DNA from: Selaginella moellendorffii
Lineage: Eukaryota > Plantae > Lycopodiophyta
Direction of reading: 5' to 3'
Assembly: GCF_000143415.4 (NCBI RefSeq)
Contig: NW_003314289.1
Span: 1,730,293 to 1,794,292 of the forward strand
DNA: 64,000 bases
Translations under genes and position numbers: made by a program
Shown: piece after piece, positions 3,151-62,921 of the stretch
Numbering within the stretch: position 1 is the first letter of the stretch
How the letters are laid out: the number at the start of each line of letters is the position of its first letter
The notes under the pieces: model-generated
The model's database searches: none
Seen by the model: the letters and a program-made list of their open reading frames with translations, nothing else
Told to the model about the DNA's origin: nothing

Positions 3151-3158
3151 AAACCCTA
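3151..3158 (+). promoter_or_regulatory. Telo-box (AAACCCTA) upstream of eIF2A
   Basis: AAACCCTAG lies 50 bp before the eIF2A ATG. Telo-boxes are typical of plant translation-machinery promoters. Confidence 0.55.
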
Positions 3159-3200
3159 GCTATGGCGGCCATTTGACGAGCGCTCTCTCTGGCGGTCGTG

Positions 3201-7994: not shown

Positions 7995-8093
7995 GCCCAA
8001 CCAGGGAAACCCAGACAATTCATCGATCCCAGTCTGCAATCTTCCATCCTCTAGCCTGAAATTTGAGATTTTCTCTTTTTCTTCATAACACCC

Positions 8094-29000: not shown

Positions 29001-29224
29001 CTCTCATTTGAGGGGAGTCCTGTGATGAAGTCCATTATAAGATATTTCATAAACGATCTAGAATTATGAGGCTTTGTAATAAGCTCTCACTAGCCTTAGT
29101 CACGGCTTTGACCTACTGACATATTAGACATGTCTTTACATAATCCTAGATATCTTTAGCCATATTTAGCTAGTGATACTTCCTCTTAAGTAAGCCCATC
29201 GTTTTGGGCACTCCACCATATCCT
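26093..29224 (-). mobile_element. Truncated duplicate of the Cassandra/chromovirus composite element
   Basis: Cassandra LTR and internal domain (26093-26489), chromovirus LTR from 26490, then 3' region, chromodomain and integrase. Equals 40053-43184 at offset 13,960. Confidence 0.8.
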
Positions 29225-32200
29225 GCTCATAGTCTATGGACCAAATGAAAGATGATGTTGACAAGTTCAACAATACTCACAACGGTTTTGTATAATAAAA
29301 AAAATGATCAATGAAACAACTAAGATATTGCATCTTGCCTAAAAAGTGTTGCACATCATTCACACACTTTAGAGTAAGGAACTTAAGAATAACTACAAAT
29401 TTTTCAAGATCAACTTGCAAACCTTCATGAGAAATACAGTACCCAAGATAACTAGTTGTGAGACACAAAATCCCTAGGCCCCAAAGTGGAGCTGAAAGGG
29501 CACAACGTGGTAGTGGCCGAAGCGAAAGCTAAATGAGCATAACACGTTTGGACTAAAAGCTCTGACTTGAAAAGGTTGAGAGTTGGAGTGGAACTCCCAA
29601 CAAAGTGCTCGAGGAACAAGCACGAGGCGAGCCATGAGTGAGTCTCTAGAAAAGGGGACACAAGAGGACCAAAACATGACACGTGGAAGTGTCTGAGATG
29701 GAGTCCGAGGTGGAGTCTAAGGTGGAGTCCGAGATGGAGTCCGAGGTGGAGTCCGAGGTGGACCCAAGATGGAGTTCGAGATAGACCCGAGATGGAGTCT
29801 GAGATGGAGTCTGAGATGGACCCAAAATGGAATCCGAGATGGAGTCCGAGAATTTATATATAAAATTTTGATTTGATTGGTGATCAATGATAAGTAGGAA
29901 TTATGATTGGACAAACATCTCCAATGGAATAAAATGATGTGTTGCAATCTTAGCCCCAGACGACAAATCAAATTCAAAGAGATTAGCATACTCCTTCATG
30001 AGTCGGTCAACCACTACAACACAAAAATCATTGAAGGGATCTAAAGAGGGAATAAAGGAACAAAATAGAAACATAAGAGGAAATAATGAAGCGACAAAAG
30101 TGATAAAGGCAAAAGGACAAAAAAGAACAGAAATGAGAGGAATACAAAAAATATAAGGAAGTATAAGACAATGGGAAAAGTAATAAAGTCACATTTGACA
30201 TGATTGTGCTGTAACCAATCCATATAAAGGATGAGGGCAAAAACTTGACTCAGCAGCACCCGCAACAACTACAGTTTAAGCTCGAGATCTCCCACACGCA
30301 TAACTAAGTCTACCTTATTCCATGGACATGCATATGTACAACTGTTGTCATAAAGAATGAAAACTAACTCTGCCACATGACATAAATGTAGATAGCAACA
30401 TGTGACCATAAACTAAGCAATAGAAGATAAACTCAAGCTTATATTAACTAATATAGATAGAATAATATGAGACATCTTATTATAAAAATGAGCTTGGAAA
30501 GTAAATACTGGATGAGCTTGTGCCAAATAAACCCCTTGATAATACTCTCGAAAAAAAAATGGAAGGGTCACAGATTTATTCACACAAGGACCCTCTACTA
30601 CTTGTACGACTCCTTGTTTCTCAAAAACATCTTGGTGTCCTGACCTTCCACTGCAGCAGCACCAACAGGTTGTTGTTAACGCCAGGGTTTCCACCCAGAA
30701 AATAAAGGTTGCTAATCCGAAAAATGCTAACATGACCAATTTCATCACATGTTTATGAGACACAAATCCCTAAGCCCCAAAGTGTCACAAATCCCTAATC
30801 CCCAAAGTGGAGCTGAAAGGGTGCCATATGGTAGTGGCCAAAGCAGAAGCCACGAGCATAACACATTTGGGACTAAAAGCTCTGACTTGGACAGTCGAAA
30901 GTGGGAGTGGAAATACCAATGAAGTGCTCGAGAAACAAGCATGAAGCAAGCAGTAAGTGAGTCTCTAGGAAAGGGATACAAAAGGACCAATACATGACAC
31001 ATGGAAGTGTTAAAATGTAGTCTAAAATGGACCCGAGACGGAGTTTGAGATGAAGTCCAAGATGGAGTCTGAGAAGAAGTTTGAGATAGACCCAAGATGG
31101 AGTTTGATATGGACCTGAGATGGAGTCTAATATGGACCTAAAAGGGACTTGAGATGGAGTCTAAGATGGACCTAAGATGGATCCAAGATGGACCTAAGAT
31201 GGAACCGAGATGGAGTTCGAGGTCGAGTCTGAGATGGACTTGAGAGAGAGTCTAAGGTTGAGGCTGAGAAAGAGATTGAGACCGAGACTAAGAAAGAGAC
31301 CGAGGCCGAGACCGAGATCGAGATTGAGATTGAGACTGAGATCGAGATCAAAACCGAAATCGAAACCGAAACCAAGACCAAGTCTGAGTCTAAGTCCAAG
31401 TTCGAGTCCGAGGGTGAAAGCCCAAAGCATTCATCTCCTAAACCCTAGGGGGTTTGGTGAGCTCCAAAAGTATAGTAAGGGGAGGATTTTAATAGAACTA
31501 GTTTAGCTAGGAAAGGTTAGTGTGACCAAGGAAGGTTATACCCATGTGTTGGGTGATGATATATCCACTAAAGCTTGAGTGAATACAAATAGACAAGCAG
31601 GGTAATTTGGTGAAATGTTCAAAAACCGGCTTTAGCTCCCTTGGGAGATCAAATGGTCAATACTCTCAATCCAGGTTTGAGTGGCATTACCTATTTAGAT
31701 ACCTAGTGTGGCTTATTAAAACCTCACTCTAGCCACATGGTTAGGCACCTAAGGGCGAAAGGTGGGGAGAGTACCTATGAAGCTTGTGTAAGGTTGCGGT
31801 GTTTCGAAATGTTGTCTTAAAGTCAAAGACTATAGAAAGGAAGAGGAGCAATAGTGACTAAAGACACGATCACATGGTGAGGAAGTCCCAAAGGACAGTG
31901 GGATTTAGTGGTTAGGCTTTTGATCCTTGACATACTGATGGGGTTGATGAGCATAGCCCTGGATGAAAAAGCACTTGGTAGGGACAAAAGAAGGGATATT
32001 GGGGAAGGGTGTTTCACATGTTTCTGAGCATCCTAAGGGTGCTAAAGTGTGGTCAAAGGATGACCATTCATGGATGAATGGCTTAATCTTTGAGAGATAA
32101 GATTGTGATGTAGGTGATCTTGGATTACTGATATGATAAAGGTGAATGGGTATGGCCTTAGTATAATAAGTGGATATATCAATAGTACCTTTGGGTGTTA

Positions 32201-32946
32201 GTTATGAGATCAGAAATATATACTACTTAAACCAAGTGCAAAGGTTAAATGCCATATATACTATTCACGAGGCTAGCATATCCCCAAGTCCTAAATAAGA
32301 CTTATGGAGGTTGTGAGTGAGACTCCTCCAAATAGTTAAAGGTGTGGTTAAATGATTAAAGTAGAATGGAAAAATTAATCACTTATAATGCCTAGCAGCA
32401 GACATCATGACCATGACTATATCCTTGCCTTTGTCTATAAACTCGGGAAGTAATAGCATCACTATTAAAATAGAACCATTTCCCATAGAAAGAGAAGAAG
32501 AAATGATGCACTATAACATTGTGCCAAGCAAAGAGTATTATTTGGCTCTACATAAAGCAAGAAGCTCAAAAATAAATGCTAAATTGCATCATTAACTTAG
32601 ATAGTCCTTGATGAAGACAAACCAATTGTTAAAATACATCATCATAATCATTGACATGTTCAAATATGCATTTCAAAATGTTTAGGAAAATGCTCCAATC
32701 TACATGTGTGTGGTTGATTTTTGGGATGATATTCAGCATTTACGTGAGTTTCCCACATATCTCCAATGGACAGTGTTGCAATAATATAATGATTTGAGCA
32801 CCAAAAGATGATTGCTATCTTCATTGGGAAGTGTATGATTGCCAGAATATAAAGAATATTAGTGGGCAATGCATCAAAGTAATTAAACCTCCAAGGATTA
32901 GACCATTCTCTAGTACAAAAATTCTAGATGAAATAGTTAGCATCTG

Positions 32947-33537: not shown

Positions 33538-33940
33538 AGATGCAACAAACGATTGCTGTATCATACTAGAGGCATTCATGCGAAGGCAAGAAAGGAAATA
33601 TAGAGATTCTTTGGGACACCATTCTCTAGAGACTAGCATTTGTACACAAAAAGTTCCTTGTTCTACATGGTTGTGAAAAGAATCAAACGTTGTCAAAAGA
33701 AACAAACAAGAAACTGCGTGTGAAGCTTCATGGTCAGTTGTGTGACTTTGTCAATCGCGTTCTATTTTCCCAGCCCACGTTTGAGAATTTTCCAGTCAAG
33801 CGCGTAGGTACCGGGAAGGCGGGCGGCTTCCTGGTATAAAAGCCCAACCAGGGAAACCCAGACAATTCATCGATCCCAGTCTGCAATCTTCCATCCTCTA
33901 GCCTGAAATTTGAGATTTTCTCTTTTTCTTCATAACACCC

Positions 33941-35506
33941 ATGGCAAGTTCATATCCAAAGGACAAGATTGCATTCCTGTACATCCACAGAGAGAGTGGT
34001 GAGATTGGCTTCGTCTCACAATCTGCGTCCAGGCATGTCCCAGTACTAGCAGCAAAGTGTGATTTCTTGTTCTCCTCCATGGTCGCGAGTGACAAGGCGG
34101 AAGATTTAGAGGCTGCTAAGCAGGCCACACGCTCAGTTGCTCCAGAGATGAACAAGTACACCATTTCCATGCTTGGAGCAGCAGCTGACCAGGAGTGGAC
34201 AGCCACCGTCTACGAGAGATACATTGGGAACGGGTTCGAGGGCGTGGTTTTCATCCAGGATCCCAATCTCCAGGAGGAGGACGGCGAGAGCATGAGCTAT
34301 CTGGCCTCTCTGCTGCTGGACAACGGCGTCATGACCAGAGATTGCCTTCTGGAGCCCTCCAGCTCGCACACACCTCAAGAGGTGGACGACATCACCTCCC
34401 AAGTTGTGGACATCATCGAGAAGAATTACATCCACTTCCCAAAGCACGACCAGTGGTTCACAAGTGGGGGCAAGCAGAGGTTTGCGGACAAGGTGAGGTA
34501 CCACGTCGCAAGAAACATTCCACTCGAGTTCGTCTTGCCCGCATTTCCAGTCAAGTCGTGCAATCCCGACAAGACTCTGGGAAAGTGCCCGGACAAGGCC
34601 GAGGAGCTGGCCATCCATTCCATGAAGATTGTTGCGGATCTCATCAAGGCCGTGTATGCTCCAGGCGTGCACTACAACGTCGCCTCGGATGGCCATGTCT
34701 TCTCTGATCTCGTCGGCTCGGACGACGCTGCTGTGGATTCTTACGGCGAGATGTTTTGGGAGATGGCACACAATCTGTATCCCGGCCTTGTCAATTTCTT
34801 TCGCCTGGATGAGTTTCTGCTGGACAACCACAGTGACAAAGACATTGCAAAGCTTATCTCCAACACCACCGTGGAGCATCCCGTTGCGACTGAGCTCACC
34901 GCCAATGCAGAGAATGCCAGGCGAGCTCTCATGTGCTTGTTTGGATGTGACGAGTCAACCGTCACCAAGGAGATCAAGGAGGACCCGGAGACACGCAATC
35001 TATATCGTGGCTTCTCCAGGTTCATGCTCGAGGACTTGTACGAACACAAGAGCTGCAAGAATCTCCCGTCAAAGTCGGCCAAGAAGAAGCTGTGCAGCCA
35101 GGTTGCCTTCCTCATGATCCTCAGGAACCGTGCATACTCGGCCATGGTGGAGTGGCTCTTCCCTTTGCAGCTGCGCATTTCCATCCACCCGCATCCAAAC
35201 AGAGGTCCCAAGTATGGCATCAACATCATCCATTCCTCTCTAGTGGCAGCGCAGCGTTCTTCCGAGGAGAAGAACTTCCACATCCCAACACCATGGCACA
35301 ACGCGGTGGTGGAGCTGGCAGATGGCAAGTTCATGCTGCTGCACTCCAAAGTCATCCGAGGTTCGAGTATGCAGGCCACAGAAATGGCCTGTGAGCAGCT
35401 CGAGTTGAGTCAACAGTTGGTTCTCAAGCGTCAAGGCTACAGAATGACGCTGGTGACATATCCAGACGGCAGACCCAGCCACTACAGGCAGGTCAGTGTC
35501 TGCTAA
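33941..35506 (+). CDS. Isocyanide synthase, DIT1/PvcA family, copy 3 (521 aa; protein identical to copy 2)
   Basis: Intact ORF with the same motifs. Confidence 0.92.
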   Translation: MASSYPKDKIAFLYIHRESGEIGFVSQSASRHVPVLAAKCDFLFSSMVASDKAEDLEAAKQATRSVAPEMNKYTISMLGAAADQEWTATVYERYIGNGFEGVVFIQDPNLQEEDGESMSYLASLLLDNGVMTRDCLLEPSSSHTPQEVDDITSQVVDIIEKNYIHFPKHDQWFTSGGKQRFADKVRYHVARNIPLEFVLPAFPVKSCNPDKTLGKCPDKAEELAIHSMKIVADLIKAVYAPGVHYNVASDGHVFSDLVGSDDAAVDSYGEMFWEMAHNLYPGLVNFFRLDEFLLDNHSDKDIAKLISNTTVEHPVATELTANAENARRALMCLFGCDESTVTKEIKEDPETRNLYRGFSRFMLEDLYEHKSCKNLPSKSAKKKLCSQVAFLMILRNRAYSAMVEWLFPLQLRISIHPHPNRGPKYGINIIHSSLVAAQRSSEEKNFHIPTPWHNAVVELADGKFMLLHSKVIRGSSMQATEMACEQLELSQQLVLKRQGYRMTLVTYPDGRPSHYRQVSVC

Positions 35507-39860: not shown

Positions 39861-40052
39861 AAATTATTGATATTAGGTTTTAAGATCAGTATTTGATGAG
39901 CATTCTTCCACTAGTTTGAGTATTGATATTAGGTTTTAAGATCAGTATTTGATGAGCATTCTTCCACTAGTTTGAGTATTGATATTAGGTTTTAAGATCA
40001 GTATTTGATGAACATTCTTCCATTGGTCTGAGTAGAGTCTACAAAACACCTA

Positions 40053-43000
40053 TGTAAGCTCCTGAATTTAGACTTCTTAAGAGGTCACCCAACCCAGTAT
40101 TATTTAAACCCAAAGACATTTAACCCAAGTATCTCAAGACCTTTAACCAATTGAAAAAGGGAGTGCATTCTTATTCATGGGCCCTTTCCCTTTATATTTG
40201 AACCTCATGAATTGTCTCTCAAGTCATTCTCTTTAGTTACTTACAATCCATCACACTTCCCTGCAAGTTAACGCCCTTGTGAATAAAAGCTAAGAGCCGT
40301 AGCTCTCCCGAGAGCCCCGCTCTCTTAACACCCTACCACTCAGGTCAAGCTCAGTCGGAGGCAAATTGGACCTGCCAGATGTCAACATATGGTGTGATTC
40401 CTCTAAGCAATCAATAGAGTTAGACTCGAGACCTGTTCTAATACCAAATTGTAAGCCACAAATTTTTCTTTTCCAATTTATTAGCTTATCTTGTTTATTC
40501 AACCACCACAGCCTTTGCCTTAGTTAAGTTCCCTTTGCCAAGGTTCCTGCTTATTGTAGTAGCTCCTACTTGGTCCTATTTGGTTTCACAATTCATTATA
40601 CAAATAACGAAGAGTTAGCCATCCATCCATGGATTTCTAAATTCTCTCCCAATCCCCCTCCCTAGGTTAGATTGGACTTAAGGTTTAGTTACATTCCCTG
40701 CAAGCATAAGCAGCCAAACACACCAAGCCTNNNNNNNNNNNNNNNNNNNNNNNNNNNNNNNNNNNNNNNNNNNNNNNNNNNNNNNNNNNNNNNNNNNNNN
40801 NNNNNNNNNNNNNNNNNNNNNNNNNNNNNNNNNNNNNNNNNNNNNNNNNNNNNNNNNNNNNNNNTCCAGGCCCAAGCCCCTAAAAAGGGTAAGGACTAAT
40901 GAGCCACAATGTACTCCATGAGCCGAGAGCATCATAGTCATTTTCCCTTTTGAGAGTGGGAGTTGTTCCTGAGCACTTCTTTGGGTGGCCTCTCCAGTAC
41001 CACCCAAGTCCATGCTCACTCCCACCCAAGGCCCCTCAGCCCCAACCTCAACCTCAAGTCATTTTAGAAGCACTATTGGAGAGTTCTTTCAAGACTAGTT
41101 CTTAGACCTCACTATCCCTACTATACTTTTGGAACCCCCTATAGCACCCCCCCCAGGGAAACACATGATTTGGCTTTTCACCCCATGAATTGTATTATTA
41201 TTTGAACTCGGTCTCGGACCCGATCTCGGACTCAACCTCTAACTTGGACTCTGTTTCAGACTCGATCTCGAACTCAGTTTCAGACTCGATCTTGGACTCG
41301 GTCTCAAACTCAGTATCAGAGTCGGTCTTAGACTCAGTCTCATCCGATAAACTCTTTATTATTTTGGTCATGATTTCAGGGATCCTTTAGCCTATAACAC
41401 ATTGAAGAGTTGGTTCCTTATAACTCCACTACCCATAGAAGAAGTTCAATGCCCACATCAAACTTCTCATTTTAATCCTATGACTTGTTGACCATGTCTC
41501 CGGGGGCATCCCCCCACTTAACAGTGTGCCTAAGTTAGCGTCCCTAGCCAAGAGCCCATGACAACAAAGTATAGATGTCCTTATACGCCTCACTTCAGCA
41601 CGCCCTAGTACGGGGTTAGGACTTGAACCCAACCTTGCTTTACTAGAGGGTTGGGACTTGAACCCAACTTCCATAAAATATGTCTACAGATTTGATATCT
41701 CTGTGGGGAGTCGAGCATAGTTCCCTACTTTTGGTTGACCTAGCTAACCCATGCTCATTAGCTTACCTTCGGCGTGCCTTTGGGTCCCAACATATCACAT
41801 TGCTCAATTTCTCAAATAGATTCTTTAATTGAATTTTGCATAAGTACATAGAGTTCTACCTTGCAAAAATTCCTCCACTAAATCTTGTGCATTCACTAGG
41901 TTTTCCTCCGGTTCCCATGTTACTTCGCAATGTGGAAATTCTTTCCACTTCACATAGAACTCCCTCACCTTGCATCCTTATTACTTGCTCTTACGTGCAT
42001 TGAGGATGCCTTCAACTTCGTATTCCTTTTTCCCTTAGATAACCTCAGCTAAAGGTTTTATTTAGTCCTTGCGAAATGGATCCTTAAAGTACAGCTTGAG
42101 TAAGTTCATGTGGAACACAAGGTGCATCTTCCCCATCTCCCGAGGAAGTCGAAGGCGATAAGCTGCCTTACCAATTCGAGCCTCAATATCATAAGACCCC
42201 ACGAGCCTGTTTAAAGAACTCAAGATCAATTCATTTCCAAAAATGCATGCATTTTACCTTTGGGTCAACTTCTACCTAATCCCACTTGATAACCTTAGGT
42301 TCTTGGTATTTAGCCACACTTTATCCCTAGGTTAAAACTCTACATCTAGGTGCTTTTGATTCACATATTTAATTTATATTTGTTGAGTCCGTTCTAAGGA
42401 ATCCCTCACTAAATTCTAAATGTTAAGTCTTTCTGCTGTGAACGCCTCCACTACAGGTAACTCTCCATGATACTCAGCCATATTGAATTTCACAGGACCT
42501 TCAATAACTTGCCCATTGATGACTTCTCATGGACTCACCCCAATACTCGAATGTGGTGAGCTATTATAGCACATTTTTGCAAGTCCCAAATGACTTACCC
42601 AATCAATTTGGTTTCCAAAGACATACCATCGCAAATAATCCTCCAGCTACCTATTTACACTTTCTATTTTTTCATCTATCAAGAAGTGTTAGTGCCATCA
42701 AACTTGACTTAATACCCATTACCTGTCTGTGGATGATAGACTATGCTAAATTTCAACTTGGTGCGATATTGTTTTAAGAAAGTTCTTTAGAACCTACTGG
42801 TGAAGATCTTATCTAGATTTGAGATAATCTCTTTTGGCCTTCTTTGCACTTGAACCACTTGTTTAAAGAACAACTTCACCACACTTTCTACATCCACTTC
42901 TGTTGTGATGGGTATGCCATTTTCAAAAATCAATCCATCATTACGAATATTGCATCAAACCTCTCATTTGAGGGGAGTCCTGTGATGAAGTCCATTATAA

Positions 43001-45771
43001 GATATTTCACAAACGATCTAGAATTATGAGGCTTTGTAATAAGCTCTCACTAGCCTTAGTCACGGCTTTGACCTACTGACATATTAGACATGTCTTTATA
43101 TAATCCTAGATATCTTTAGCCATATTTAGCTAGTGATACTTCCTCTTAAGTAAGCCCATCGTTTTGGGCACTCCACCATATCCTACAAGAAGCTCATCAT
43201 GACACTCTTCTAAAGCTACCTTAACTCCCTTTGTGGAACATACACCCTCATCTATTTATAATAAATGAGTCCATTGCATTCTACATAACCTGTCTTCTTT
43301 TCTGTAGGTGGCTCCCCTCTTTGGTGAGCATCCTGCACTTCTTGGTTCCTTAGCAACACTTCTTATGCTAGACCATTGTTCTCATACGTTATCGATACAT
43401 CATCCTAAAATGTTGCTATCACATTGGATATCGCAAACTTCAAGTTTACCTTTTGACTTAAAGCATCTGCCATGATGTTGCTCTTCCTAGGTTTATACAA
43501 AATCTTACAATCAAACTCGGCCAAAGCATTAGCCCACTGACCCTATTTCCCTCTTATATCGGGCTGTAATAAGAAGTGTTTCATTGCTACATTATCCGTG
43601 TAAACTTTGAAGTGTCTCCCAAGATAGTGTCGCCACTCCTTGAGTGCATTGACCACCCCAAACAGTTCCTTCTCATGGGCATGCCATTTTCATTGAGCTT
43701 TGTTCAACTTTTTCGAGAAGAATGATACTGGGTGGTTGTCTTGCTTCAAAACTATGCCCTAGCATTTGTCCTCCTCAAAGGGAAGTTGAGAAAGGCTCCC
43801 ATGTTAGTGTTACTAAACTTTGGTAAGAACTTTAAGGTATAAATAAATGCTTCAGAATTTGCATTGGGCATAGTACTTCACATTCTACTGTTTATACTAT
43901 CTTCTTTTTTTCTGTTTGGTTCGTTAAAGGCAAGGCTACCCTCATATAGTGTTTGATAAACTTTTGTTAGTAGTTGTATAGCCTCAAGAATGCCCTTACC
44001 TCATGTACATTTGATGGTTGTTCTCATTCCTAGAGCTACCACAAATCAATTGAACCAATCCATCCGGAAGATCACTTTAAATTTTGCTATATCCAACACA
44101 GTAAAATTCATGTCTACTTTCCATGTCCCTACTTCGATTCTTGCTTGTCGAAGTACCTTATTGGTGTTTTGGTTATCTTAAATAAACTCTATAGTCATTT
44201 GTTCACCCAACCACAGCACTGTTAGTCTAACTTGCCAGACTATATTTGCAACCACAAAATTATCTGAAGCACCCATGTCAATAAGGATCTTAACAAAGAT
44301 ACCTTTGAGCTTCCCTCAAAGGGTTACTAGATATTGTGATTGACTCTCTACCAAAATTGCTCGCATAATGAGTCACTTTGAGATAGGGATTAAATCACAT
44401 ACCTTAATTTGAATTTCACCTTATTTAATGGTTATATTGACTCTGGCCTTTTTCAGTTAGGGACATTCCTTCGAAAAGTGTTCCACTTCACCATAGTTGA
44501 AATGTATATTGTTTCCCATGCTATTAGTAGACTTGACCTTTTTATCAATGGGTTTGTCCCTTTTCGCTTGACTCCCTCATATACTTGTTTGTTGGCCACT
44601 GGATCTACCTTTCCAAAACCCTAAAAACTTATTTTTCGAGAAACTTTTTTTTGAATCTCCCTTTGCTATATATCCCCTTTGGTTTAGCTCTTTTGCTAAA
44701 TGTGGACCTCAACCCAGTTGTGTTCCCCTTTCGTAGGTTATTATTAAAATGCACCTTAATAGCTACATCTAATACTTCCTTGTAGTTAGTCGGGTTTTAA
44801 TGCATCACCTCGTCTCGAGCCTAGGTCTACAAGATTGATATGAAGGTATGGAACACATCCATATTGCCCATATTTGTGATAAGGATCCTTTTCGCCATGA
44901 ATGCATTCACATACTCTTGAATGGTTCTCATTTGCTTCAGCTTACTCAGCTCATTCCTTAGGTACAAAGTAGCATTCAGAGGAACATAGATTGCACAAAT
45001 CCTCGCCTTCATTATTTTTGAAGTGGCCACCAATCCTTCATTAGCCTTTGTTGTTCTCCACTAAGACTTAGCATTATCTGCCAAGTATGGTTTAGTACAT
45101 GAGACTTTCTCCAAACTTGGTAACCACAATGTTTAGAAATAATCTTCTATATTGTAAAATCAATCCTCCACCACCTTATAGTCATTCACTCCCTTGAAGA
45201 CTAGTGAGAGTTTTGGTTTGTACTTAGGAACTACTTGAGGGATTGATTCCACTTCAATTTGTTCGACCTTATTCGATTTGGCCTTAGTCCACTCCAAAAG
45301 GTCCATGCCTTTTGCATTGCTAGCCTTTGTAGTCTTTTACTTTTTCTTATGCTTCTTGTCACACTTTAGCTTGCGTATGAGAGTCTCTAGTAGGGCATTT
45401 GTTTGTACCAATTTTCCTTCTAGAATGTCCAATCAAGCCTTGGACAATTAAACCTCTCCATCAGACTCTTGTTTGGAAGATTCCTCATCTTGTGCAAGGA
45501 TTCCTTATCCATAGCTTTTAGTTCAACTAGTTCCGCTTCTATCCTTTGCTAGAATTGAGGAAAAGACTTTGATACCAAATTATAAGCTCCTAAATTTGAA
45601 CTTCCCAAAAGTCACCCAACCCAGTACTATTCAAACCCAAAAACGCTTAATCCCAAGTATCTTAAAACTTTTAACCAATTAAAAACAGTGGGCACTCTTA
45701 TTTATAGGCTTTTTTTCTTTATATTTGAACTGATGGACTATATCTCAAGTTATTCTTTTTGGTTGTTTACA
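40053..45771 (-). mobile_element. Composite retroelement: Cassandra LTR - PBS - chromovirus gag/PR/RH/INT/chromodomain - chromovirus LTR - PBS - Cassandra internal - Cassandra LTR
   Basis: 5S-bearing LTRs at 45581-45771 and 40053-40245. Perfect 5-bp TSD ACCTA at 40048-40052 and 45772-45776. Met-tRNA-type PBS next to 45581 and next to 40450. Decayed gag (ORF 44827-45033), protease, RNase H, integrase and chromodomain remnants. Confidence 0.85.
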
Positions 45772-46494
45772 ACCTAAGCCACATATAAATGGGACAATAA
45801 TGACGCTACAACTTTTATCATCCATCATCCACCTGCAGATTACAAAATGGATGTTTTAGTGTTAGTCTATTTTCCCAATCTTACAGTACATAGTTTATTT
45901 AAAGGGCTCTTTGCTCAATGGAAAGGACTTTATCGGGTGTTGTGGCAAGTTAGACTATAAGTTTATAAAGTTTGGCATGACATCGAACAAGTTAATCCTC
46001 CAAATATTATACATGTGCAATAATTAAACGCTTCGTACAAGGGATCAAGAATAATTAGCAACACCTACAGATCCATGAATTTTGATATTCTCTTAATATT
46101 CTAAATCCCAGCCCATTCACCACGAAAACCCTGATTGTCTTCCATCAAGAGGTGGCAGTCCAAGTGTACGGTGACAATGCTATATACTATTATTAGTGTA
46201 TTATGATTTTGATAATTGTTGAATTAGTTTTAATCTGGACCACTCACTCTTTTATATAAGCTAGTGTTTTTGGGATAATTGATATGCACATTTTTATTTT
46301 CCATTTCATATTCCATGCACTCAACATATAATATTATTACACCTTTAATTTAAAATTTAATTTAAATCATTAAGTGGTACTCCAGTGGAAGATCGGGGAT
46401 ATCCTAAAGCTCCAGTAGCCTGGAATGGCCAAAGTTGAGCAGTGGATTCAGCCATGAGAAGGAGAGCTGGCTCAAGAATCCTACAATTGCTTTC

Positions 46495-49400
46495 TGGAGA
46501 ACGACAGAGGCCAATGAAGGACCAGTGGCCACTTGGGACATGATGAAGGCAAGGATCCGCATGACTTACGTTCCTCCGAATGCTACTCTGCATCTAAGAG
46601 ACGAGCTGAGTAGGCTGAAGCAAACCGGAACCATTCAGGAGTATGTGAATGGGTTTATGGCAAAGAGGATACTTGTCACGGACATGGGGGATATGGATGC
46701 ATTCCATGCCTTCATATCGGGCTTGCAAACCTGTGCTCACGGCGAGGTGATGCATTGGAACCCGAACAATTACAAAGAAGTGTTGGATGCGGCTATCAAG
46801 GTGCATTTTAACGATAACCTGCGAAAGGGGAACATGACGGGGTCGGGGTCCACGTTTAGGAAAGGGGCCAAACCAAGGGGAACATATAGCAAAGGGAAAT
46901 TCAAGAAAAGTTTCTTTAAGAATGAGTTCTCGGGGTTCCCGAAAGGCAAATCTAGTGGCCAGCGAGCAAATATGTGGGGGAGTCAAGCAAAAAGAGACAA
47001 ACCCATGGATAAGAAGGTCAAGTCATTTAGTAGCGTGGGAAACAACATATGCTACAACTGCAGTGAAGCGGGACACTTTTCAAGGGAATGTCCCTACCCA
47101 AAGAAGGCCAGAGTCAATATGGCCATTAAGTCAGGTGAAGTCCAAATTGAGATATGTGATCTAGTCCCTAGCTCAAAATTACTCATTACATAAGCAACTT
47201 TGGTAGAGAGTCGTTCGCGACATCTACTAGCCCTCCAAGGGAAGCTCGGAGATAACTTTATTAAGATCCTTATTGACACGGGTGCTCTGGATAATTTTGT
47301 GGCTGCAGACATAATCTGGCAAGTCGAACTAACGGTGTAGCAGCTGGGTGAACCAAGGACTATATAGTTTGTTCAAGGTAGCCAAAGCACCGATGAGGTA
47401 CTTCGACAAGTGAGAGTCGAAGTAGGGACTTGGAAAGTAGACATGGATTTCACCATGTTGGACATGGCGGGATTTGATGTGATCTTCGGGATGGATTGGT
47501 TCAATCGATTCGTGGTAGCTCTACATGGACAAGGTAGGAACCTTGTGGTACTAGCGAATGCCCAAGGAAGAAGATCTAGGGTGGAGGCCCAGGATCTAAA
47601 GGTAGGGCAATGCAAGGCCAAAGATTCGTACCTAAACCTGGTGTCCACGAGAGGACAACTCACTAAAGGGACCAAGGCTGCATTTTTGTGCTTACTCTCG
47701 GTGAGGAGTGACAAAAAGATAGGAACGGAAGAAGTACCTTTAGTGATCCAGCAGGTGTTGGACCAATTCCAGGATACTATGCTAGAGGAGCTACCGGTGG
47801 GGTTGCCCCCCGCACAACCGATAGAGCATAAGATTGAGCTGGTCGAGGGTGCTGAGGCGGTGGTTCATCCCCCCTATCGTTTGAACGAAAAAGAACTCAC
47901 GGAGCTCAAGCGCTAACTAGAGGAGTTGGTGGACAAAGGGTATGTTAGGTTAAGCAAGTCCCCTTAAAAGAGTGTCATGACAAACTTTTTGCGGGACACG
48001 GTGGAGTGCCCAAGACAATGGGCTTACTCAAGAGGAAGTACCACTGGCCAGATATGGCTAAGGACGTCCAAGACTATGTAAAGACATGTCTAACATGTCA
48101 GCAGGTCAAAGCCATGACTAAGGCTAATGGGGGCTTGTTACAAAGCATCCCAATTCTAGATCGTCCGTGGAAATGTTTTACGATGGACTTCATCACGGGA
48201 CTCCTCTTAAGCAAGGGGTTCAATGCGATATTCGTGGTGGTGGATTGATTTTCGAAGATGGCACATTTCATACCCACCACAACGGAAGTGGATGCGGAAG
48301 GTGTGGCAAAGCTGTTCTTTGAACAAGTGGTTTGAGTGCAGGGAAGGCCAGAAAAGATTATCCCAGATCGAGATAAGATCTTCACTAATAAGTTTTGGAG
48401 AACACTCTTGGAACAATATTGCACCAAGTTGAAATTCAGCATAGCCTATCACCCATAGACAGATAATGGGTATTAAGTCAAGTTTGATGGCACTAACACT
48501 TCTTGACAGACGGGCAAACGGAAAGGGTGAATAGGTAGCTAGAGGATTATTTGCGATGTTATGTCTCGGGAGACCAAACTGATTGGGTAAGTCATTTGGG
48601 ACTTGCAAAAATGTGTTATAACAACTCACCACATTCGAGTATCGGGGTGAGTCCATAGGAAGTTATCAATGGGCGAGCTATTGAAGGTCCTGTGGAACTC
48701 GGCGTGGCCAACTATCATGGAGAGTTACCTGCAGTGGAGGCATTCACGGCGGAAAAACTCAACATTTGGAATCTAGTGAGGGATTCCTTAGAACGGGCTC
48801 AACAAAGGCAAACCAAGTACGCGAACCAGAAGTGTCGGGATGTAGAGTTCCAAGTTGGGGAGAAGGTATGACTGAACACCAAGAACCTCAGGCTACCAAG
48901 TGGGATCAGCCGGAAGTTGACCCAAAGGTAAAAATGCATGTATTCCTGTAAATGAATTGATCTTGAGTTCCTTACGCAAGTTTGCAGGGCCTTATGAGAT
49001 TGAGGCTTGAATCGGTAAAGTGGCTTACCGTCTCCGACTTCCTTGAGAGATGGGGAAGATGCACCCCGTGTTCCACGTGAACTTACTCAAGCCATATTTT
49101 GAGGATCCGCTTCGCAAGGACCAAGTAAGACCTTTACCTGAGGTTATCCAAGGGGAAGAGGAATACGAAGTCGAAGCCATCCTCAATGCGCGCAAGAGCA
49201 AGCGACAAGAACGCAAAGTGAGAAAGTTCCATGTGAAGTGGAAAGGATTTCCACACTACAAAGTAACATGGGAACCAGAAGAGAACCTAGCAAACGCGCA
49301 AGATCTAGTGGAGGAATTTCTGCAAGGCAGAACTCTATGTACTTATGCAAAGTTCAATTAAAGTATCAATTTGTGAAGTTGAGCAATGGCATATGTTGAG

Positions 49401-50375
49401 ACCCAAAGGCGCGCCGAAAGTAAGCTAATTAGCATGGGTTAGCTAGGTCAACCAAGTGTAGGGAACTATGCCCGACTCCCTACGGGGATATCAAATCCGT
49501 AGACGTATTCTACGGAGGTTGGGTTCGAGTCCCAACCCCGTAGTAAAGCAAGGCTGGGTTCAAGTCCCGACCCCATACTAGGCCGTGGTGAGGTGAGGAG
49601 TATAGGGACACCTATATTCTGTTGTCATGGGCTCTTGGCCGGGGAGGCTAACTTAGGCACACCGCTAAATGGGGGGATGCCCCCAGAGACATGGTCAACA
49701 AGTCATAGGATAAAAAAGAGACGTTCGATGTGGGCATCGAACTTCTTCTATGGGTGGTGGAGTTGTAAGGAACCAATTCACCAAGGTGTCGTAGGCTAAA
49801 GGATCCCCGAAAGCATGACCAAAATGACAAAGAGTTCATCGGATGGGACCAAGTCGAAGATCGAGTCCAAGACTGACTCTAAGACAGAGTCTGGGATCGA
49901 GTCCGAGGCCAAATCGGAGAACGAGTTCAAGACCGAGTTCAAGACCGAGTTCGAGACAGAGTCCGAGATCCAAATCAGGTCCAAGACCGAGTCCAAGGTC
50001 GAGTCCAAAGTCGAGTCCGAGATCGGGTCTGAGATCGAGTCCGAGATCAAGTCCGAGACCGAGTCCGAAGTCGGATCTGAGATCAAGTTCGAGACCGAGT
50101 CTGAGTACTTGGCTGCTTGTGTTTGCGGGGAGTGTAGCCGAACCTTAAGTCCAGTCTAACCCAGAGAGGGGGATTGAGAGAAATTTGGGAATCCGTGGAT
50201 GGATGGCTAACGCTCTGTTGCTCGTGCAGTGAGTAGCTGAAACCAAGTAGGACCAAGTAAAAGCTGGTACCATAGGCGAGAATCTTGGTGAGGGAATTTA
50301 GCAAAAGTCAATGCAATGTTGGACGGATAGACGAGGTAAACTGGCAAATTGGAAAGGAAAAATTTGTGGCTTACA
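46495..50375 (+). mobile_element. Chromovirus-type Ty3/gypsy element, 3' part (gag C-terminus, protease, integrase, chromodomain, 3' LTR remnant); RT/RNase H deleted
   Basis: Zinc knuckle CYNCSEAGHFSREC; protease LIDTGA; jump from the RT start (..SKSP) to the integrase HHCC at ~47965; MDFITGL; chromodomain EYEVEAIL...FHVKWKGFPHYKVTWEPEENL; LTR ends GGCTTACA at 50375. Confidence 0.9.
49850..50105 (+). repeat. Degenerate hexamer array (GAGTCC/GAGACC/GAGATC)n in the element's 3' region
   Basis: Visible 6/12-bp periodicity. Related arrays at 27245-27380, 41205-41340 and 57660-58030. Confidence 0.85.
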
Positions 50376-51142: not shown

Positions 51143-51544
51143 AGATGCAACAAACGATTGCTGTATCATACTAGAGGCATTCATGCGAAGGCAAGAAAGG
51201 AAATATAGAGATTCTTTGGGACACCATTCTCTAGAGACTAGCATTTGTACACAAAAGTTCCTTGTTCTACATGGTTGTGAAAAGAATCAAACGTTGTCAA
51301 AAGAAACAAACAAGAAACTACGTGTGAAGCTTCATGGTCAGTTGTGTGACTTTGTCAATCGCGTTCTATTTTCCCAGCCCACGTTTGAGAATTTTCCAGT
51401 CAAGCGCGTAGGTACCGGGAAGGCGGGCGGCTTCCTGGTATAAAAGCCCAACCAGGGAAACCCAGACAATTCATCGATCCCAGTCTGCAATCTTCCATCC
51501 TCTAGCCTGAAATTTGAGATTTTCTCTTTTTCTTCATAACACCC

Positions 51545-53110
51545 ATGGCAAGTTCATATCCAAAGGACAAGATTGCATTCCTGTACATCCACAGAGAGAG
51601 TGGTGAGATTGGCTTCGTCTCACAATCTGCGTCCAGGCATGTCCCAGTACTAGCAGCAAAGTGTGATTTCTTGTTCTCCTCCATGGTCGCGAGTGACAAG
51701 GCGGAAGATTTAGAGGCGGCTAAGCAGGCCACACGCTCAGTTGCTCCAGAGATGAACAAGTACACCATTTCCATGCTTGGAGCAGCAGCTGACCAGGAGT
51801 GGACAGCCACCGTCTACGAGAGATACATTGGGAGCGGGTTCGAGGGCGTGGTTTTCATCCAGGATCCCAATCTCCAGGAGGAGGACAGCGAGAGCATGAG
51901 CTATCTGGCCTCTCTGCTGCTGGACAACGGCGTCATGACCAGAGATTGCCTTCTGGAGCCCTTCAGCTCGCACACACCTCAAGAGGTGGACGACATCACC
52001 TCCCAAGTTGTGGACATCATCGAGAAGAATTACATCCACTTCCCAAAGCACGACCAGTGGTTCACAAGTGGGGGCAAGCAGAGGTTTGCGGACAAGGTGA
52101 GGTACCACGTCGCAAGAAACATTCCACTCGAGTTCGTCTTGCCCGCATTTCCAGTCAAGTCGTGCAATCCCGACAAGACTCTGGGAAAGTGCCCGGACAA
52201 GGCCGAGGAGCTGGCCATCCATTCCATGAAGATTGTTGCGGATCTCATCAAGGCCGTGTATGCTCCAGGCGTGCACTACAACGTCGCCTCGGATGGCCAT
52301 GTCTTCTCTGATCTCGTCGGCTCGGACGACGCTGCTGTGGATTCTTACGGCGAGATGTTTTGGGAGATGGCACACAATCTGTATCCCGGCCTTGTCAATT
52401 TCTTTCGCCTGGATGAGTTTCTGCTGGACAACCACAGTGACAAAGACATTGCAAAGCTTATCTCCAACACCACCGTGGAGCATCCCGTTGCGACTGAGCT
52501 CACCGCCAATGCAGAGAATGCCAGGCGAGCTCTCATGTGCTTGTTTGGATGTGACGAGTCAACCGTCACCAAGGAGATCAAGGAGGACCCGGAGACACGC
52601 AATCTATATCGTGGCTTCTCCAGGTTCATGCTCGAGGACTTGTACGAACACAAGAGCTGCAAGAATCTCCCGTCAAAGTCGGCCAAGAAGAAGCTGTGCA
52701 GCCAGGTTGCCTTCCTCATGATCCTCAGGAACCGTGCATACTCGGCCATGGTGGAGTGGCTCTTCCCTTTGCAGCTGCGCATTTCCATCCACCCGCATCC
52801 AAACAGAGGTCCCAAGTATGGCATCAACATCATCCATTCCTCTCTAGTGGCAGCGCAGCGTTCTTCCGAGGAGAAGAACTTCCACATCCCAACACCATGG
52901 CACAACGCGGTGGTGGAGCTGGCAGATGGCAAGTTCATGCTGCTGCACTCCAAAGTCATCCGAGGTTCGAGTATGCAGGCCACAGAAATGGCCTGTGAGC
53001 AGCTCGAGTTGAGTCAACAGTTGGTTCTCAAGCGTCAAGGCTACAGAATGACGCTGGTGACATATCCAGACGGCAGACCCAGCCACTACAGGCAGGTCAG
53101 TGTCTGCTAA
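51545..53110 (+). CDS. Isocyanide synthase, DIT1/PvcA family, copy 4 (521 aa; N97S and S140F vs copy 1)
   Basis: Intact ORF; catalytic-domain motifs unchanged. Confidence 0.93.
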   Translation: MASSYPKDKIAFLYIHRESGEIGFVSQSASRHVPVLAAKCDFLFSSMVASDKAEDLEAAKQATRSVAPEMNKYTISMLGAAADQEWTATVYERYIGSGFEGVVFIQDPNLQEEDSESMSYLASLLLDNGVMTRDCLLEPFSSHTPQEVDDITSQVVDIIEKNYIHFPKHDQWFTSGGKQRFADKVRYHVARNIPLEFVLPAFPVKSCNPDKTLGKCPDKAEELAIHSMKIVADLIKAVYAPGVHYNVASDGHVFSDLVGSDDAAVDSYGEMFWEMAHNLYPGLVNFFRLDEFLLDNHSDKDIAKLISNTTVEHPVATELTANAENARRALMCLFGCDESTVTKEIKEDPETRNLYRGFSRFMLEDLYEHKSCKNLPSKSAKKKLCSQVAFLMILRNRAYSAMVEWLFPLQLRISIHPHPNRGPKYGINIIHSSLVAAQRSSEEKNFHIPTPWHNAVVELADGKFMLLHSKVIRGSSMQATEMACEQLELSQQLVLKRQGYRMTLVTYPDGRPSHYRQVSVC

Positions 53111-54838
53111 TATGTGATAGACGGTTTTGATTCTGGGTAAATTCCCTCAGGCCCATTTTTTTGTAAATTTTAAAAAGAGTAAATACCATTTTCTCTCTCA
53201 CTTCTTTGTCTCCATCTGGAATTCTAAAATGAACCGTACAAACAGAAGAAATAGAGAACATATTGTTGACTGTATAGTGCTTCCTCTGTTACTACAAATA
53301 TATGAATACCATTACAGCAGTATAGGGGTCACTACTAACTTTGACAATCTTTTACTTCCGCTCCTTCTCTGGATCAATGTTGTGAAGAAGAAGCCCTGGA
53401 TTGAAAATTCTTCAATACCGACACTATTCACCGCCTAAGTTTTACGCTGTGTATATTTCAGTCCAATTTTGTAAGCGGCTCAAGCTGCACAACACGTTAC
53501 ATGCTTCGCTCCAGCGTAGGCCATCCTGTCTCCAAAAGGACGAGACGTGGTCTTTGGCAACTTGAGAACTTTAGGATGTGTTTGACAAGCCTTCTTTTTG
53601 AAACAAAGGTTTTTGCAGGACAATGTCATAGTCAAGTGGAATTTGTGGTCAAAGAATGTTTGCTACTTGTTTTGTGTTAAACACGTGTTTTAAGAGAAGG
53701 AAAGCAGCAAGAAGCTACCTGTTTTCTTTATGCAAAGTCTCAACCGCCTGATATATAAAATGTAACTATGGTTCTTGTTAGAATTAGATGGCCTGACTTT
53801 CTGTGGCAAGTTTGGATTCACATCAGATTCTCTTCTTTTTATGGAGCTTGCTTCCCTGGTATTTGTTTTCTTCCTTGTTGACTTACATAGTTCAAGTATA
53901 CATGGTAAGGCTTACCATGGTAAAGGAGTTCCAGCGCAAACTATCAGAGCGAGATATGTACTGTAGGCCCGTGCTTTGCCACCATCGCCTCCATCATACC
54001 AGTGCTTCACCCTTGCATTCAACTCAATCGTCATATGACTCAGACCACTCGCTAGCCAAAATTCGAACGACTGCATACTAGGTAAAGTCATGCCAATGGC
54101 TGACCTGTCCATTCTTTTTCTTGGCCATACATCATGTACCTCCTCCATGATTAACAATTTTATTCATAAACATTCACATGGTTTTGTTTGTGTAAATTAC
54201 TATGAATATACCTTGAAAGCATACACACCTGGGGGTTGTAACGTATGGCTGTGCCAAACATCCATGACTGGATTTCCATGGAAATAGCAGACATTTTGTG
54301 TCATCAAGATGCCAGATATGTGAAGCACTCAGTGTGGAATCAAAAGTCAAGTGGGGCTTCCCAGAGACATGAGGAGTGGCCCTGTTTGCATTGAGGACTA
54401 GGGGCCCCAGTATGCTTGACCCAGCAGCTCGTCTCCAGCAGCTCCAGCAGGTCGTCTCACTGCAGACTCCAGCTTTGGAGCGCTGCCTCCTGCGAGCTGC
54501 ACCGCTCGGGGCAGGAGTGCTGTGCCTTCACAGAGATTCATGCGTGTGGCTACAAGCTCTAGTAGATCCAACAATGAGGTATCCTTGGAACATGGCTTAT
54601 GTCCACATGCCAGCTCCACTCAAACTTCCAGCACCACCCAAGAGCTGTCTTGAGATGGGACCAGTTCCCCAGGACCCTTGGAGTGAGAGAGATTTCCCTG
54701 CCAACCAAGGGGTTTCCCACCACCTCTCTACCTATGCAAAACAGAAGAAATTCATCTACCCTTTGGCAGAAAAAACATGTATTAGTATTCATTATACTAT
54801 TTATAACATTATAGTATCCAAACAACAGATCCCTGAGA

Positions 54839-55908
54839 CCAAGACATGGCATTATCTACCAAGTATGGTTTTGCACATGGGACCTTCTCCGAACTCGGTA
54901 ACCGCAATGCTCGAAAATAGTCCTGCATATCATAAAACCAATCCTCCACCACCTTATAGTCGTTCACTCCCTTGAAAACTGGTGGGGGCTTTGGTTTGTA
55001 CTTGGGAACTACCTGAGGGACTGATTCCACTTCGGTCTGTTCGACCTTGTTTGGTTCTGCCTCAGTCCCTACCGAAGGGTCTGCACCTTCTACGCTGCTA
55101 GCATCCGCAGTCTTTCGCTTTTTTTTTCCACTTCTCGTCACGCTTTAGCTTGCGTACGAGAGTCTCCAGTAGGGCATTGGTCTGTGCCAACTGTCCTTCT
55201 AGCACGTCCAATCGAGCCTTGGACGACCGAACCTCGCCACCGGACTCCTGTTTGGAGGTTTCCTCACTAGAGTCCTCCTCATGCAAGGATTTCTCATCCA
55301 TAGCCTCTTGTTCGGCCGGAGGCTCGAGCTCTGGAGGAGGTCCATCTTTGCCTTGGTTCGTTTCCACTTTGCCTTTGCCATCTCCCAGCAATCCACCTCT
55401 ATCCTTCGCTAGAACTGAGGAAAAGGCTCCAATACCAAATTGTAAGCCATAAATTTTTCCTTTTCAATTTGCCAACTTACCTCGTCTATCCGTCCAACAC
55501 TACCTTGACTTTTGTTAAGTTCCCTCGCCAAGATTCCCACCTATGGTACCAGCTCTTACTTGGTCCTACTTGGTTTCAGCTACTCACTACACGAGCAATA
55601 GAGTGTTAGCCATCCATCCACGGATTCCCAAATCTTTCCCAATCCCCCTCCCCGGGTTAGACTGGACTTAAGGTTCGGCTGCACTCCCCGCAGGCACAAG
55701 CAGCCAAGCACACCAAGCCTCTAGGTTCCTAACATGATCATGAGACCCTCTATATCCCAAGTCTTGGGTGCAACACTTGCTTCGGGACGTTGGGGCGAAA
55801 CACTGTGGCCTAACAGCCCAGTATGGGTACCTCTACCCCCCACTTCCATCCCGAAGGAAGGCACAAGCCCCTAGGAAGGGCGAGGACCAATGAGCCGTAT
55901 AGTACTCA
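54839..55908 (-). mobile_element. Chromovirus element 5' part: truncated 5' LTR (55441-55908), PBS, gag N-terminus
   Basis: On the minus strand the LTR end ...GGCTTACA is followed by PBS TGGTATTGGAGCC. gag ...PPPVFKGVNDYKVVEDWFYDMQDYF...KPYLVDNAMSW breaks at 54839. Confidence 0.88.
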
Positions 55909-56097: not shown

Positions 56098-58730
56098 CAG
56101 ATGCTAGCCATTTCATCTAGAATTTTTGTACTAGAGAATGGTCTAATCCTTGGAGGTTTAATTACTTTGGTGGATTGCCCACTAATATTCTTTATATTTT
56201 GGCAAATCACTTGAGATAATCATACACTTCCCTAGCAATCATCTTTTGGCCCTCAAATTATTATATTATTGCAACATTGTCCCTCGGAGACACGTGGGAA
56301 ACTCACGTAAATGCTGAATATCATCCCAAAAATCAACCACACACATGTAGATTGGAGCATTCTCCTAAACATTTTCAAATGCATATTTGAACATGTCAAT
56401 AATTATGATGATGTATTTTAATAATTGGTTTGTCTTCATCAAGGACCATTTGAGTTAATGATGCAATTTAGCATTTATTTCTGAGCCTCTTGCTTTATGT
56501 AGAGCCAAATAATACTCTTTGCTTGGCACAATGTTATAAGACATTACTTCTTCTTCTCTTTCTATGGGAGATAGTCCTATTTTAATAAAGGTTGATGCTA
56601 TTGCTTCCCGAGTTTATAGACAAAGGCAAGGATGTGGTCATGGTCATGATATCTGCTGCTAGGCATTATAAGTGACTAATTTTTCCATTCTACTTTAATC
56701 ATTTAACCACACTTTTAACTATTTGGAAGAGTCTCACTCACAACCTCCATAAGTCCTATTTAGGACTTGGGGATATGCTAGCCTCGTGAATGGTATATAT
56801 GCCACTTAACCTTTGCACTTGGTTTAAGTGGTATATATTCCCGATCTCATAACTAACACCCAAAGGTACTATTGATATATCAACTTATTATACTAAGGCC
56901 ATGCTCATTCACTTTTATCATATCAATAGTCCAAGACCACCTACATCACGATCCTATCTCTCAAAGATTAAGCCATCCATCTATGAATGGTTATCCCTTG
57001 ACCACACTTTAGCACTTTTAGGATGCCCAGAAACATGCAAAACACCTTTCCCCAATGTCCTTTCTTCTGTCCCCACTAAGTGCTTCTTCATCCAAAGCCA
57101 TACTCACCAACCCCACCACTAAGTCAAGGCCCAAAAGCTTGACCACTAAATCCCATTGTCCTTTGGGACTTCCTCACTATGTGATTGTGTCTTTGGTCAC
57201 TACACTAGAGGACTGTTCCTCTTCATTTTTATAGTCTGGGACTTTAGGACAACATTTCGAAACACCACAACCCTACACGAGCTTCATAGGTACTCTCCCC
57301 ACCTTTCACCCTTAAATGCCTAACCATGTGGCTAGAGTGAGGTCCCAATGAGCCACACCAGGTATCTAAGTAGGTAGTGCCACTCACACCTAAATTGGGA
57401 GTATTGACCATTCGATCTCTCGGGGGAGCTAGAGCCGGCTTTTGAACACTTCACCAAGCTACCTTGCTTGTCTATCTGTATTCACTCAAGCTTTGGACTC
57501 CTCAGTGGATATACCATCACCCAACACATGGGTATAACCTTCCTTGGTCACACTAGCCTTTCTTAGCCAAACTAGTTCCATTAAAGTCCTCCCCTTGCTA
57601 TACTTTTGGAGCTCACTAAACCCCCTAGGGTTTAGGAGATGAACGCTTTGGGCTTTCACCCTCGGACTCGAACTTGGACTTGGACTCAGACTCGGTCTCG
57701 ATTTTGGTTTCAGTCTCGGTCTCGGTCTCGGTCTCAGTTTCAGTCTCGGTCTCGATCTTAGTCTTGATCTCTTTCTTAGTCTTGGTCTCAATCTCTTTCT
57801 CAGCCCAACCTCAGACTCTATCTCAGGTTCATCTAAGACTCGACCTCGGACTCCATCTCAGTTCCATCTTAGGTCCATCTTGGATCCATCTTAGGTCCAT
57901 CTTAGACTCCATCTTGGGTCCATATTAGACTCCATCTCGAGTCCATTTCGGGTCCATATTAAACTCCATCTCGGGTCCATATCAGACTCCATCTTGAACT
58001 TCGTCTTGGGTCTATCTTGGACTCCATTTTGACACTTCCACGTGTCATGTATTGGTCATTTTGTGTCCCTTTCCTAAAAACTTACTTACTGCTTGCTTCG
58101 TGCTCGTTCCTCGAGCACTTCATTGGGATTTCCACTCCCACTTTCGATTGTCCAAGTAAGAGGTTTTAGTCCAAATGTGTTATGCTTATTTGACTTCTGC
58201 TTTGGCTACTACCATGTGGCACCCTTTCGGCTCCACTTTAGGGATTAGGGATTTATGACACTTTGGGGTTTAGGGATTTGTATCTCACAAATGTGTGATG
58301 AAATTGGTCATGTTAGCATTTTCCAGATTAGCAACCTCTATTTTCTGGGTGGGGACCTTGGTGTCAACAACAACCTGTTGATATTGCTGCAATGGAAGGT
58401 CAGGACACCAAGATGTTTTTGAGAAACAAGGAGTCATACAAGTAGTAGAGGGTCTTTGTGTGAATAAATCTGTGACCCCTCCATTTTTCTTTCAGGAGTA
58501 TTATCAAAGGGTTTATTTGGCATAAGTTCATCTAGTATTTACTTTCCAAGCTCATTTTTATAATAAAATGTCTCATATTATTCTATCCATATTAGTTAAT
58601 ATAAACTTGAGTTTATCTTCTATTGCTCAATCTATGGTCACATGTTGCTATCTACATTTATGTCATGTGGCAAAATTAGTTTTCATTCTTTATAGCAACA
58701 GTTGTACATATGCATGTGCATGGAATAAGG

Positions 58731-62770: not shown

Positions 62771-62921
62771 AAGTAGAGTCTACCAAACATTTGAGCCACA
62801 TATAAATGGGACAATAACAGTGCTATATTACTTAGTGGAAAGGACCGTATTAGGTGTTGTGGCAAGTTGGACCACAAGTTTATGAGGTTCAGCATAACGT
62901 CAAACAAGTTGATCCTTTAAA

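Follow-up and report, generated by a model that had tools for sequence, protein, structure and literature searches.

A 64,000-nucleotide stretch of the Selaginella moellendorffii genome (contig NW_003314289.1, positions 1,730,293 to 1,794,292; hereafter the window) contains, at 40053-45771, an element that joins a Cassandra, a 5S-bearing miniature retrotransposon with terminal repeats (TRIM), to a coding chromovirus. The Cassandra-chromovirus anatomy is real, and the element is an old, single hybrid. The enzymes of a chromovirus resembling SM1-Galahad probably reverse-transcribed it and inserted it as a single DNA. Tentatively, we favour an origin in which a single chromovirus RNA, with a Cassandra unit already in it, was reverse-transcribed in the ordinary way after priming at the second of its two primer-binding sites (PBSs).

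Anatomy and insertion site of the hybrid

Read 5' to 3' on the minus strand, on which all its parts lie, the 5719-bp hybrid consists of a Cassandra long terminal repeat (LTR), a PBS, a chromovirus body, a chromovirus LTR, a second PBS, a Cassandra interior and a second Cassandra LTR, and the order and coordinates given in a preliminary description of the window held. The 5' outer LTR (45581-45771, 191 bp) is of Cassandra type, with 18 nt separating 5S box A, which has 2 mismatches, from box C, which has 1, and is not among the six LTRs with Rfam 5S matches. The left joint (45566-45580) consists of a 3-nt spacer, ATT, and a decayed tRNA-Met-type PBS, after which the chromovirus leader begins. 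Within the chromovirus internal region (4158 bp), Pfam recovered the domains in the order previously described: remnants of gag (44896-45084; PF03732, E 0.003, under the Pfam cut-off), aspartic protease (44034-44330; PF08284), RNase H (43513-43770; PF17917) and integrase (42089-43219; PF17921 and PF24626), then a chromodomain (41864-42022; PF00385, E 2e-13), whose aromatic cage was read by eye at what we take to be the HP1 positions. The core of the reverse transcriptase (RT) is deleted, with the breakpoint just beyond the protease, near 44031. Two intron-like GT..AG inserts lie in the integrase (~42715-42676 and ~42257-42207).

A chromovirus tract resembling a polypurine tract (PPT) at 41423-41434 precedes the central chromovirus LTR (40450-41422, 973 bp), which contains tandem repeats of 12 bp, a run of G and one of 134 N (40731-40864). 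An alternative start for this LTR near 40940 was rejected: the tandem-repeat end lies upstream of it in both LTRs of element B, the second chromovirus copy in the window. The right joint (40435-40449) again consists of the spacer ATT and a decayed PBS, and leads into the Cassandra interior (40246-40434), which has its PPT at the end and is 84.4% identical to the interior of TRIM A, an intact Cassandra in the window. Counted with spacer and PBS, the interior measures 204 bp. The 3' outer LTR (40053-40245, 193 bp), also of Cassandra type, gave an Rfam 5S match (E 0.011) whose 32 bits fall short of the gathering score, 38. Both changes of family fall at an LTR end/PBS, as had been noted before, and the LTRs inside the hybrid are unmixed.

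The hybrid is flanked by one perfect target-site duplication (TSD), ACCTA, at 45772-45776 and 40048-40052, where the preliminary description had placed it. The chance of such a repeat flanking 5719 bp was ~0.002. The empty site that had been pointed out in a paralog near 62781-62810 was seen at 62789-62793, and a second paralog has another at 12414-12418 (strand does not apply to the TSD copies or the empty targets). The flanks of the hybrid continue gap-free through these two empty paralogs (42/46 and 54/65 columns), and the empty target is three transitions away from ACCTA.

These observations also bear on whether the assembly might have wrongly joined two high-copy repeats within a recently duplicated region. 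The N run lies within the element, the surrounding duplications are 98-99% identical, and no contig spanning the hybrid was found in either of two sequencing runs from one sample, which contained 5-6% of words and neither confirmed nor questioned the locus. Over the whole element the run contigs represented family copies only, and the edges of the Cassandra LTRs were marked by loose ends. On the other side, the TSD and the flanks agree with the two empty paralogs, and a segmental duplicate crosses the N gap in register. This partial copy (26093-29224, minus strand, 98-99% identical) includes the right joint and a gap-free central LTR (26490-27462) that is free of N, with an offset of 13960 on both sides of the N run. 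It is not an independent event, nor is a further 98-99% piece of the hybrid near 13967-15240, also produced by segmental duplication. Moreover, every part of the hybrid differs from its relatives by 14-22%, which would have left an assembler no near-identical overlap to mis-join. We therefore regard misassembly as very improbable.

Age, shared signals and origin of the hybrid

In the hybrid, 76 of 298 Cassandra sites and 422 of 1717 chromovirus sites had undergone GC-to-AT decay, a context-adjusted odds ratio of 1.08 (0.81-1.44). The same test separated the hybrid from TRIM B, a second intact Cassandra in the window (1.88), and from element B (2.25). This suggests that the two halves are about equally old, as expected if they arrived together; a chromovirus half added long after the Cassandra should show less decay. 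The outer LTRs are 79.5% identical (35 transitions, 4 transversions), and the 5' outer LTR is slightly nearer to TRIM B (82.0%). Their identity would fit LTRs that started out identical and decayed independently, but the two are not closer to each other than to other copies. In the hybrid and its flanks the GC-to-AT decay was strong beyond CG and CHG context, affecting ~0.2 of CHH sites.

For signals common to the two families, the comparison was between the intact TRIM A and element B, both of which lie outside the hybrid. The top local match between them was the PPT/LTR start (20/22 columns), a score reached anywhere by 3 of 200 shuffles, and this junction was also the top non-TRIM site among the 412 TGT[ACT]A anchors in the window (27 vs 7 for the next). 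The top match of TRIM A with the 5' piece of element B was the LTR end/PBS (16/17 columns). The remainder of the Cassandra and chromovirus LTRs is unrelated. As judged from these alignments, the link between the families is stronger than the preliminary description saw, since the PPT/LTR-start junction is also common to both. One part of its case was rejected, namely the PBS variant TGGTATTGGAGC. The variant is present at 55437 and 62078 as described, but only there; the PBSs of the hybrid and of TRIM A have other decayed forms. It resembles ordinary decay and is like the decayed PBSs of published Cassandras, and among plant primers tRNA-Met ranks first (39%).

In the route that we tentatively favour, the parent RNA that we infer would have read R-U5g, PBS, Cassandra interior, Cassandra LTR, PBS, body, U3g-R. 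A tRNA would prime at the second PBS, and the minus strand would copy the Cassandra unit and R-U5g, then jump to the 3' R as usual and run to the PBS. The plus strand would be primed at the Cassandra PPT and transferred at the PBS as usual. The product would be a circular permutation of the parent with identical Cassandra LTRs as its ends and the chromovirus LTR in the centre, and the RNase H and integrase of the chromovirus would have acted on the Cassandra PPT and ends. The strand-transfer steps are standard (PMC6894440, cited, like all other accessions below except PMC1950507, from excerpts of the text), and we extend them here to an RNA with two PBSs. For the parent element itself, the simplest origin would be a single switch of template, at the PBS, within a shared particle. 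Sense-strand runs of at least four T numbered 18 in the chromovirus body and 0 in the TRIM A interior. RNA polymerase III is therefore unlikely to have read from the outer LTR through the body, and a parent was more likely transcribed from the chromovirus LTR.

The preliminary description had explained the TSD-bounded element by template switching between co-packaged RNAs and integration as one unit. The single TSD, the two empty paralogs and the equal decay uphold integration as one unit, but template switching between co-packaged RNAs is unnecessary, because priming of one hybrid RNA at its second PBS, or one DNA crossover, gives the same layout. Such a crossover would have taken place in the ~20 shared bases at the LTR end/PBS, recombining a one-LTR chromovirus circle into a resident plain Cassandra that had made the TSD. 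This is a single step, it accounts for both joints and the single TSD, the required patch of homology exists (the 16/17 columns above), and three-LTR elements usually originate from DNA-level recombination (PMC1950507, PMC4079214). However, it predicts a younger chromovirus half, whereas the decay of that half equals that of the Cassandra half, and the equally good patch at the PPT was left unused. A stretch of ~20 bp is also short for homologous recombination. One joint should moreover have kept the TT spacer usual in Cassandra, whereas both have ATT, an objection weakened by contigs suggesting ATT-type Cassandras. Some Cassandra contigs (records 8 and 13) seem to have ATT, and the ATT/TT spacer was dropped as a discriminator of mechanisms. 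We consider the circle route unlikely, although a serious competitor; if it was taken, the hybrid is uninformative on shared particles.

Co-packaging of a Cassandra and a chromovirus RNA, with crossed plus-strand transfers joining their DNA copies at the PBS common to both and integration by the Cassandra ends, would fit the joints at the PBS, the one TSD, the equal decay and the shared terminal signals, and template-switch complexes with TSDs are known (PMC1950507). We nevertheless find it rather improbable: two intermolecular transfers are required, and strand displacement must be suppressed at the long LTR; in the published model the switch is at R and the result is mixed LTRs within one family; and recombination between unrelated co-packaged RNAs is deemed rare (PMC6894440). 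Insertion of a whole chromovirus at the terminal base of Cassandra's 5' LTR, followed by deletion of its 5' LTR between the similar LTR ends, predicts the ATT observed at both joints, and microhomology deletions are frequent in this region. It demands, however, a base-exact, same-strand insertion into a 595-bp target as well as an exact deletion, and it too predicts a younger chromovirus half, of which the decay gives no sign; we think such nesting quite improbable. A second TSD around the chromovirus part would be no clean discriminator here, because the TSD of the nested insertion would equal the spacer plus the start of the PBS.

Several points weigh against reverse transcription of a single two-PBS RNA. 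The parent element is postulated, and the evidence is one old, decayed event. The outer LTRs, at 79.5% identity, cannot be established as sisters; they have six private shared columns, five of which are ordinary decay, so that private characters are uninformative on sisterhood. The decay clock is coarse, and the reference copies differ for the two halves. The shared patches of ~20 nt also offer a substrate for DNA recombination, and the RT core was found in none of the chromovirus copies within the window. The reads gave a hint, below a finding, of a second Cassandra-to-leader joint. Contigs at the left joint numbered 505 and 370 in the two runs; among the 16 pieces listed, two (one per run) are gap-free over 45538-45605, with 11 differences each. 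Judged by the copies in the window, a plain chromovirus should show 15-17 differences, and a further Cassandra-to-leader joint 8-11. These two contigs have only 25 letters on the LTR side, below the bar of 31, both runs are from one sample, and a less decayed plain chromovirus could also approach 11 differences.

The two families and their surroundings

Two intact Cassandras lie on the minus strand of the window. TRIM A (58731-59325, 595 bp; LTR 195, interior 205) is young, with LTRs 96.4% identical; TRIM B (61682-62274) is older, with LTRs 86.5% identical and the TSD ACTAC. By the Cassandra criteria of PMC7215508, both are TRIMs: shorter than 1 kb and non-coding, with two LTRs, a Met-type PBS, a PPT and a 5-bp TSD, which is exact in TRIM B and has one mismatch in TRIM A. 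TRIM A has 5S box A with 1 mismatch and box C with 0, and the boxes are 18 apart in TRIM A and in the hybrid LTRs; the two LTRs of TRIM B have their best box A match elsewhere (spacer 42). Rfam 5S matches were obtained in six of seven Cassandra LTRs, every one below the gathering score. Folding of TRIM A gave no signal (z -0.63). The fern Cassandras of PMC10853983 are 565-606 long with LTRs of 187-208 and interiors of 190-193, to which the intact Selaginella copy is close at 595/195/205, and Rosaceae and Spartina Cassandra entries have the same PPT end, GGTGGAT, as the Selaginella TRIM in the excerpted records. Boxes A and C 18 nt apart, a Met-type PBS and the lack of coding sequence are likewise properties of published Cassandras (PMC7215508, PMC10853983). 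Lycophytes and Selaginella were absent from the excerpted Cassandra supplements searched (PMC7215508, PMC10853983). As compared by sizes and PPT, two intact 5S-bearing TRIMs in a lycophyte may represent an extension of the range of Cassandra or an independent capture of 5S, like that of Ajax.

Element B extends from gag to the 3' LTR at 46491-50375 (plus strand), with most of the RT and RNase H deleted. Its 5' part (54838-55907, minus strand), comprising a partial LTR, the PBS, the leader and the start of gag, is inverted away from the rest. Element B is split within gag by an inversion, with one unit of the repeated gene DIT1/PvcA (see below) carried between the halves. GT..AG inserts occur at the same places in its integrase as in the hybrid (near 48470 and 48928), the acceptor of the second being decayed; they may be introns. 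Together the copies have the chromovirus domain order gag-protease-RT-RNase H-integrase with a C-terminal chromodomain, the RT being represented by its start only in element B and by its end only in the hybrid.

The chromovirus fits SM1-Galahad, a member of the Galadriel clade from S. moellendorffii, as matched by description (PMC3350952). Both have a ~1-kb LTR with a G tract, a Met-type PBS, a CCHC Gag, many copies, a frame interrupted after the integrase core and a group I chromodomain. The likeness is one of description only, and the hybrid's chromovirus LTR measures 973 bp vs 1076-1146 in SM1-Galahad and 919 in SM2-Galahad. No link to a TRIM is reported in the excerpted SM1-Galahad paper (PMC3350952). 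An integrase tree of 55 rows (9 short matches dropped), which was unconverged and had no labelled clade references, placed the window integrase in no starred group; a gag search returned one unnamed match, and an Atlas search generic chromodomains. The Met-type PBS of the window chromovirus speaks against assignment to the Tcn1 clade; that clade is self-priming, and most of its members have no tRNA PBS (PMC6317226).

Other repeats surround these copies. A decayed, older relic of Ty3/gypsy type, with matches to RT and RNase H, lies at ~59600-61600 (plus strand) and in paralogs, as part of the duplicated unit. A stretch at ~57000-58200 (minus strand), with paralogs near 17000-18500 and 31000-32400, has the same 12-bp tandem repeats and a weak likeness to the chromovirus LTR, and may be a solo LTR from a related family. 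The gene repeated beside the element is DIT1/PvcA (isocyanide-synthase-like), with four near-identical open frames (8067-9659, 19954-21546, 33914-35506 and 51518-53110) in a block of tandem and inverted duplications. Its closest named relatives are in S. moellendorffii, 72-90% identical; after these paralogs the closest named relatives are fungal, chytrids first at 44-45%. The gene is possibly of fungal or microbial origin and amplified in this land plant. Host genes with introns, DEX1-like (FG-GAP, PF23722) and eIF2A (PF08662), occupy positions 1-7100.

The helper question and known systems

The autonomous partner of Cassandra is called unknown in PMC7215508, and the excerpt of PMC10886601 gives no indication of the family responsible for its mobility, in agreement with the remark in the preliminary description that the helper is not firmly established. 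A hybrid with Cassandra ends and one chromovirus body names a testable candidate. By the single-RNA or the co-packaged route, chromovirus enzymes would have handled the Cassandra PPT and ends. Taken with the shared signals, this makes the chromovirus family probably the helper of Cassandra in this lycophyte, though not in general. The earlier proposal that the chromovirus mobilises the TRIM stands to this extent, through the shared signals and the integration as one unit, and falls short of proof and of generality. Galadriel chromodomains are absent from grasses, Arabidopsis and legumes in the survey table of PMC3350952, whereas the grasses, Arabidopsis and legumes surveyed there all have Cassandra; helpers must therefore differ between lineages.

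The hybrid suggests that a TRIM may depend on its helper through ~20 bases at each LTR border, and the intact copies suggest a 5S-bearing TRIM in a lycophyte. A more far-reaching combination, in which an SM1-Galahad-like helper is tied to Cassandra by short signals alone, the choice of PBS flips the hybrids, and Cassandra dates to the lycophyte split, is possible but, taken as a whole, doubtful. If it were true, the primer site would decide whether a two-PBS hybrid takes a form with chromovirus ends or one with Cassandra ends, with Cassandra riding in cis, and Cassandra would reach back to the split of the lycophytes from other vascular plants.

No Cassandra-chromovirus hybrid, named Cassandra helper or Selaginella Cassandra was found in the literature searched, which included excerpts of PMC10946416 and PMC12486564 and lay outside Repbase, Maiwald 2021 and Kalendar 2008. 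Within families, elements with three LTRs and a single TSD have been described (PMC1950507; PMC4079214). The template-switch complexes of PMC1950507 have the same layout as the hybrid, with three LTRs, two interiors, one TSD and outer LTRs of a single kind. They join members of one family at R, however, whereas the hybrid joins two unrelated families at the PBS, and its outer LTRs are too decayed to show the identity expected in such complexes. The multi-LTR Cassandras described in the excerpts of PMC7215508 and PMC10853983 are arrays of Cassandra alone, in contrast to the fusion with a coding chromovirus seen here.

In Selaginella itself, the TRIM SmoRetroS4 has been linked to a Ty3-gypsy element, SmoLTRA4 (PMC4717578), a pairing like that in the hybrid. 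Identity with this pair was rejected on size, SmoRetroS4 being 393 bp with 104-bp LTRs. Its LTRs are 98% like those of its partner, whereas the Selaginella Cassandra and chromovirus LTRs are alike at their ends only. The same paper describes a duplicated 25-bp PBS-containing sequence in rice OsajLTRA10. The sugar beet chimeras of PMC13570524 are tandem copies with LTRs of different families, for which template switching has been invoked; those named in the excerpt combine TRIM with TRIM, whereas the hybrid combines Cassandra with a coding chromovirus. Three-LTR, single-TSD elements and TRIM-TRIM chimeras are already known; the fusion of Cassandra with a chromovirus is new to the literature searched.

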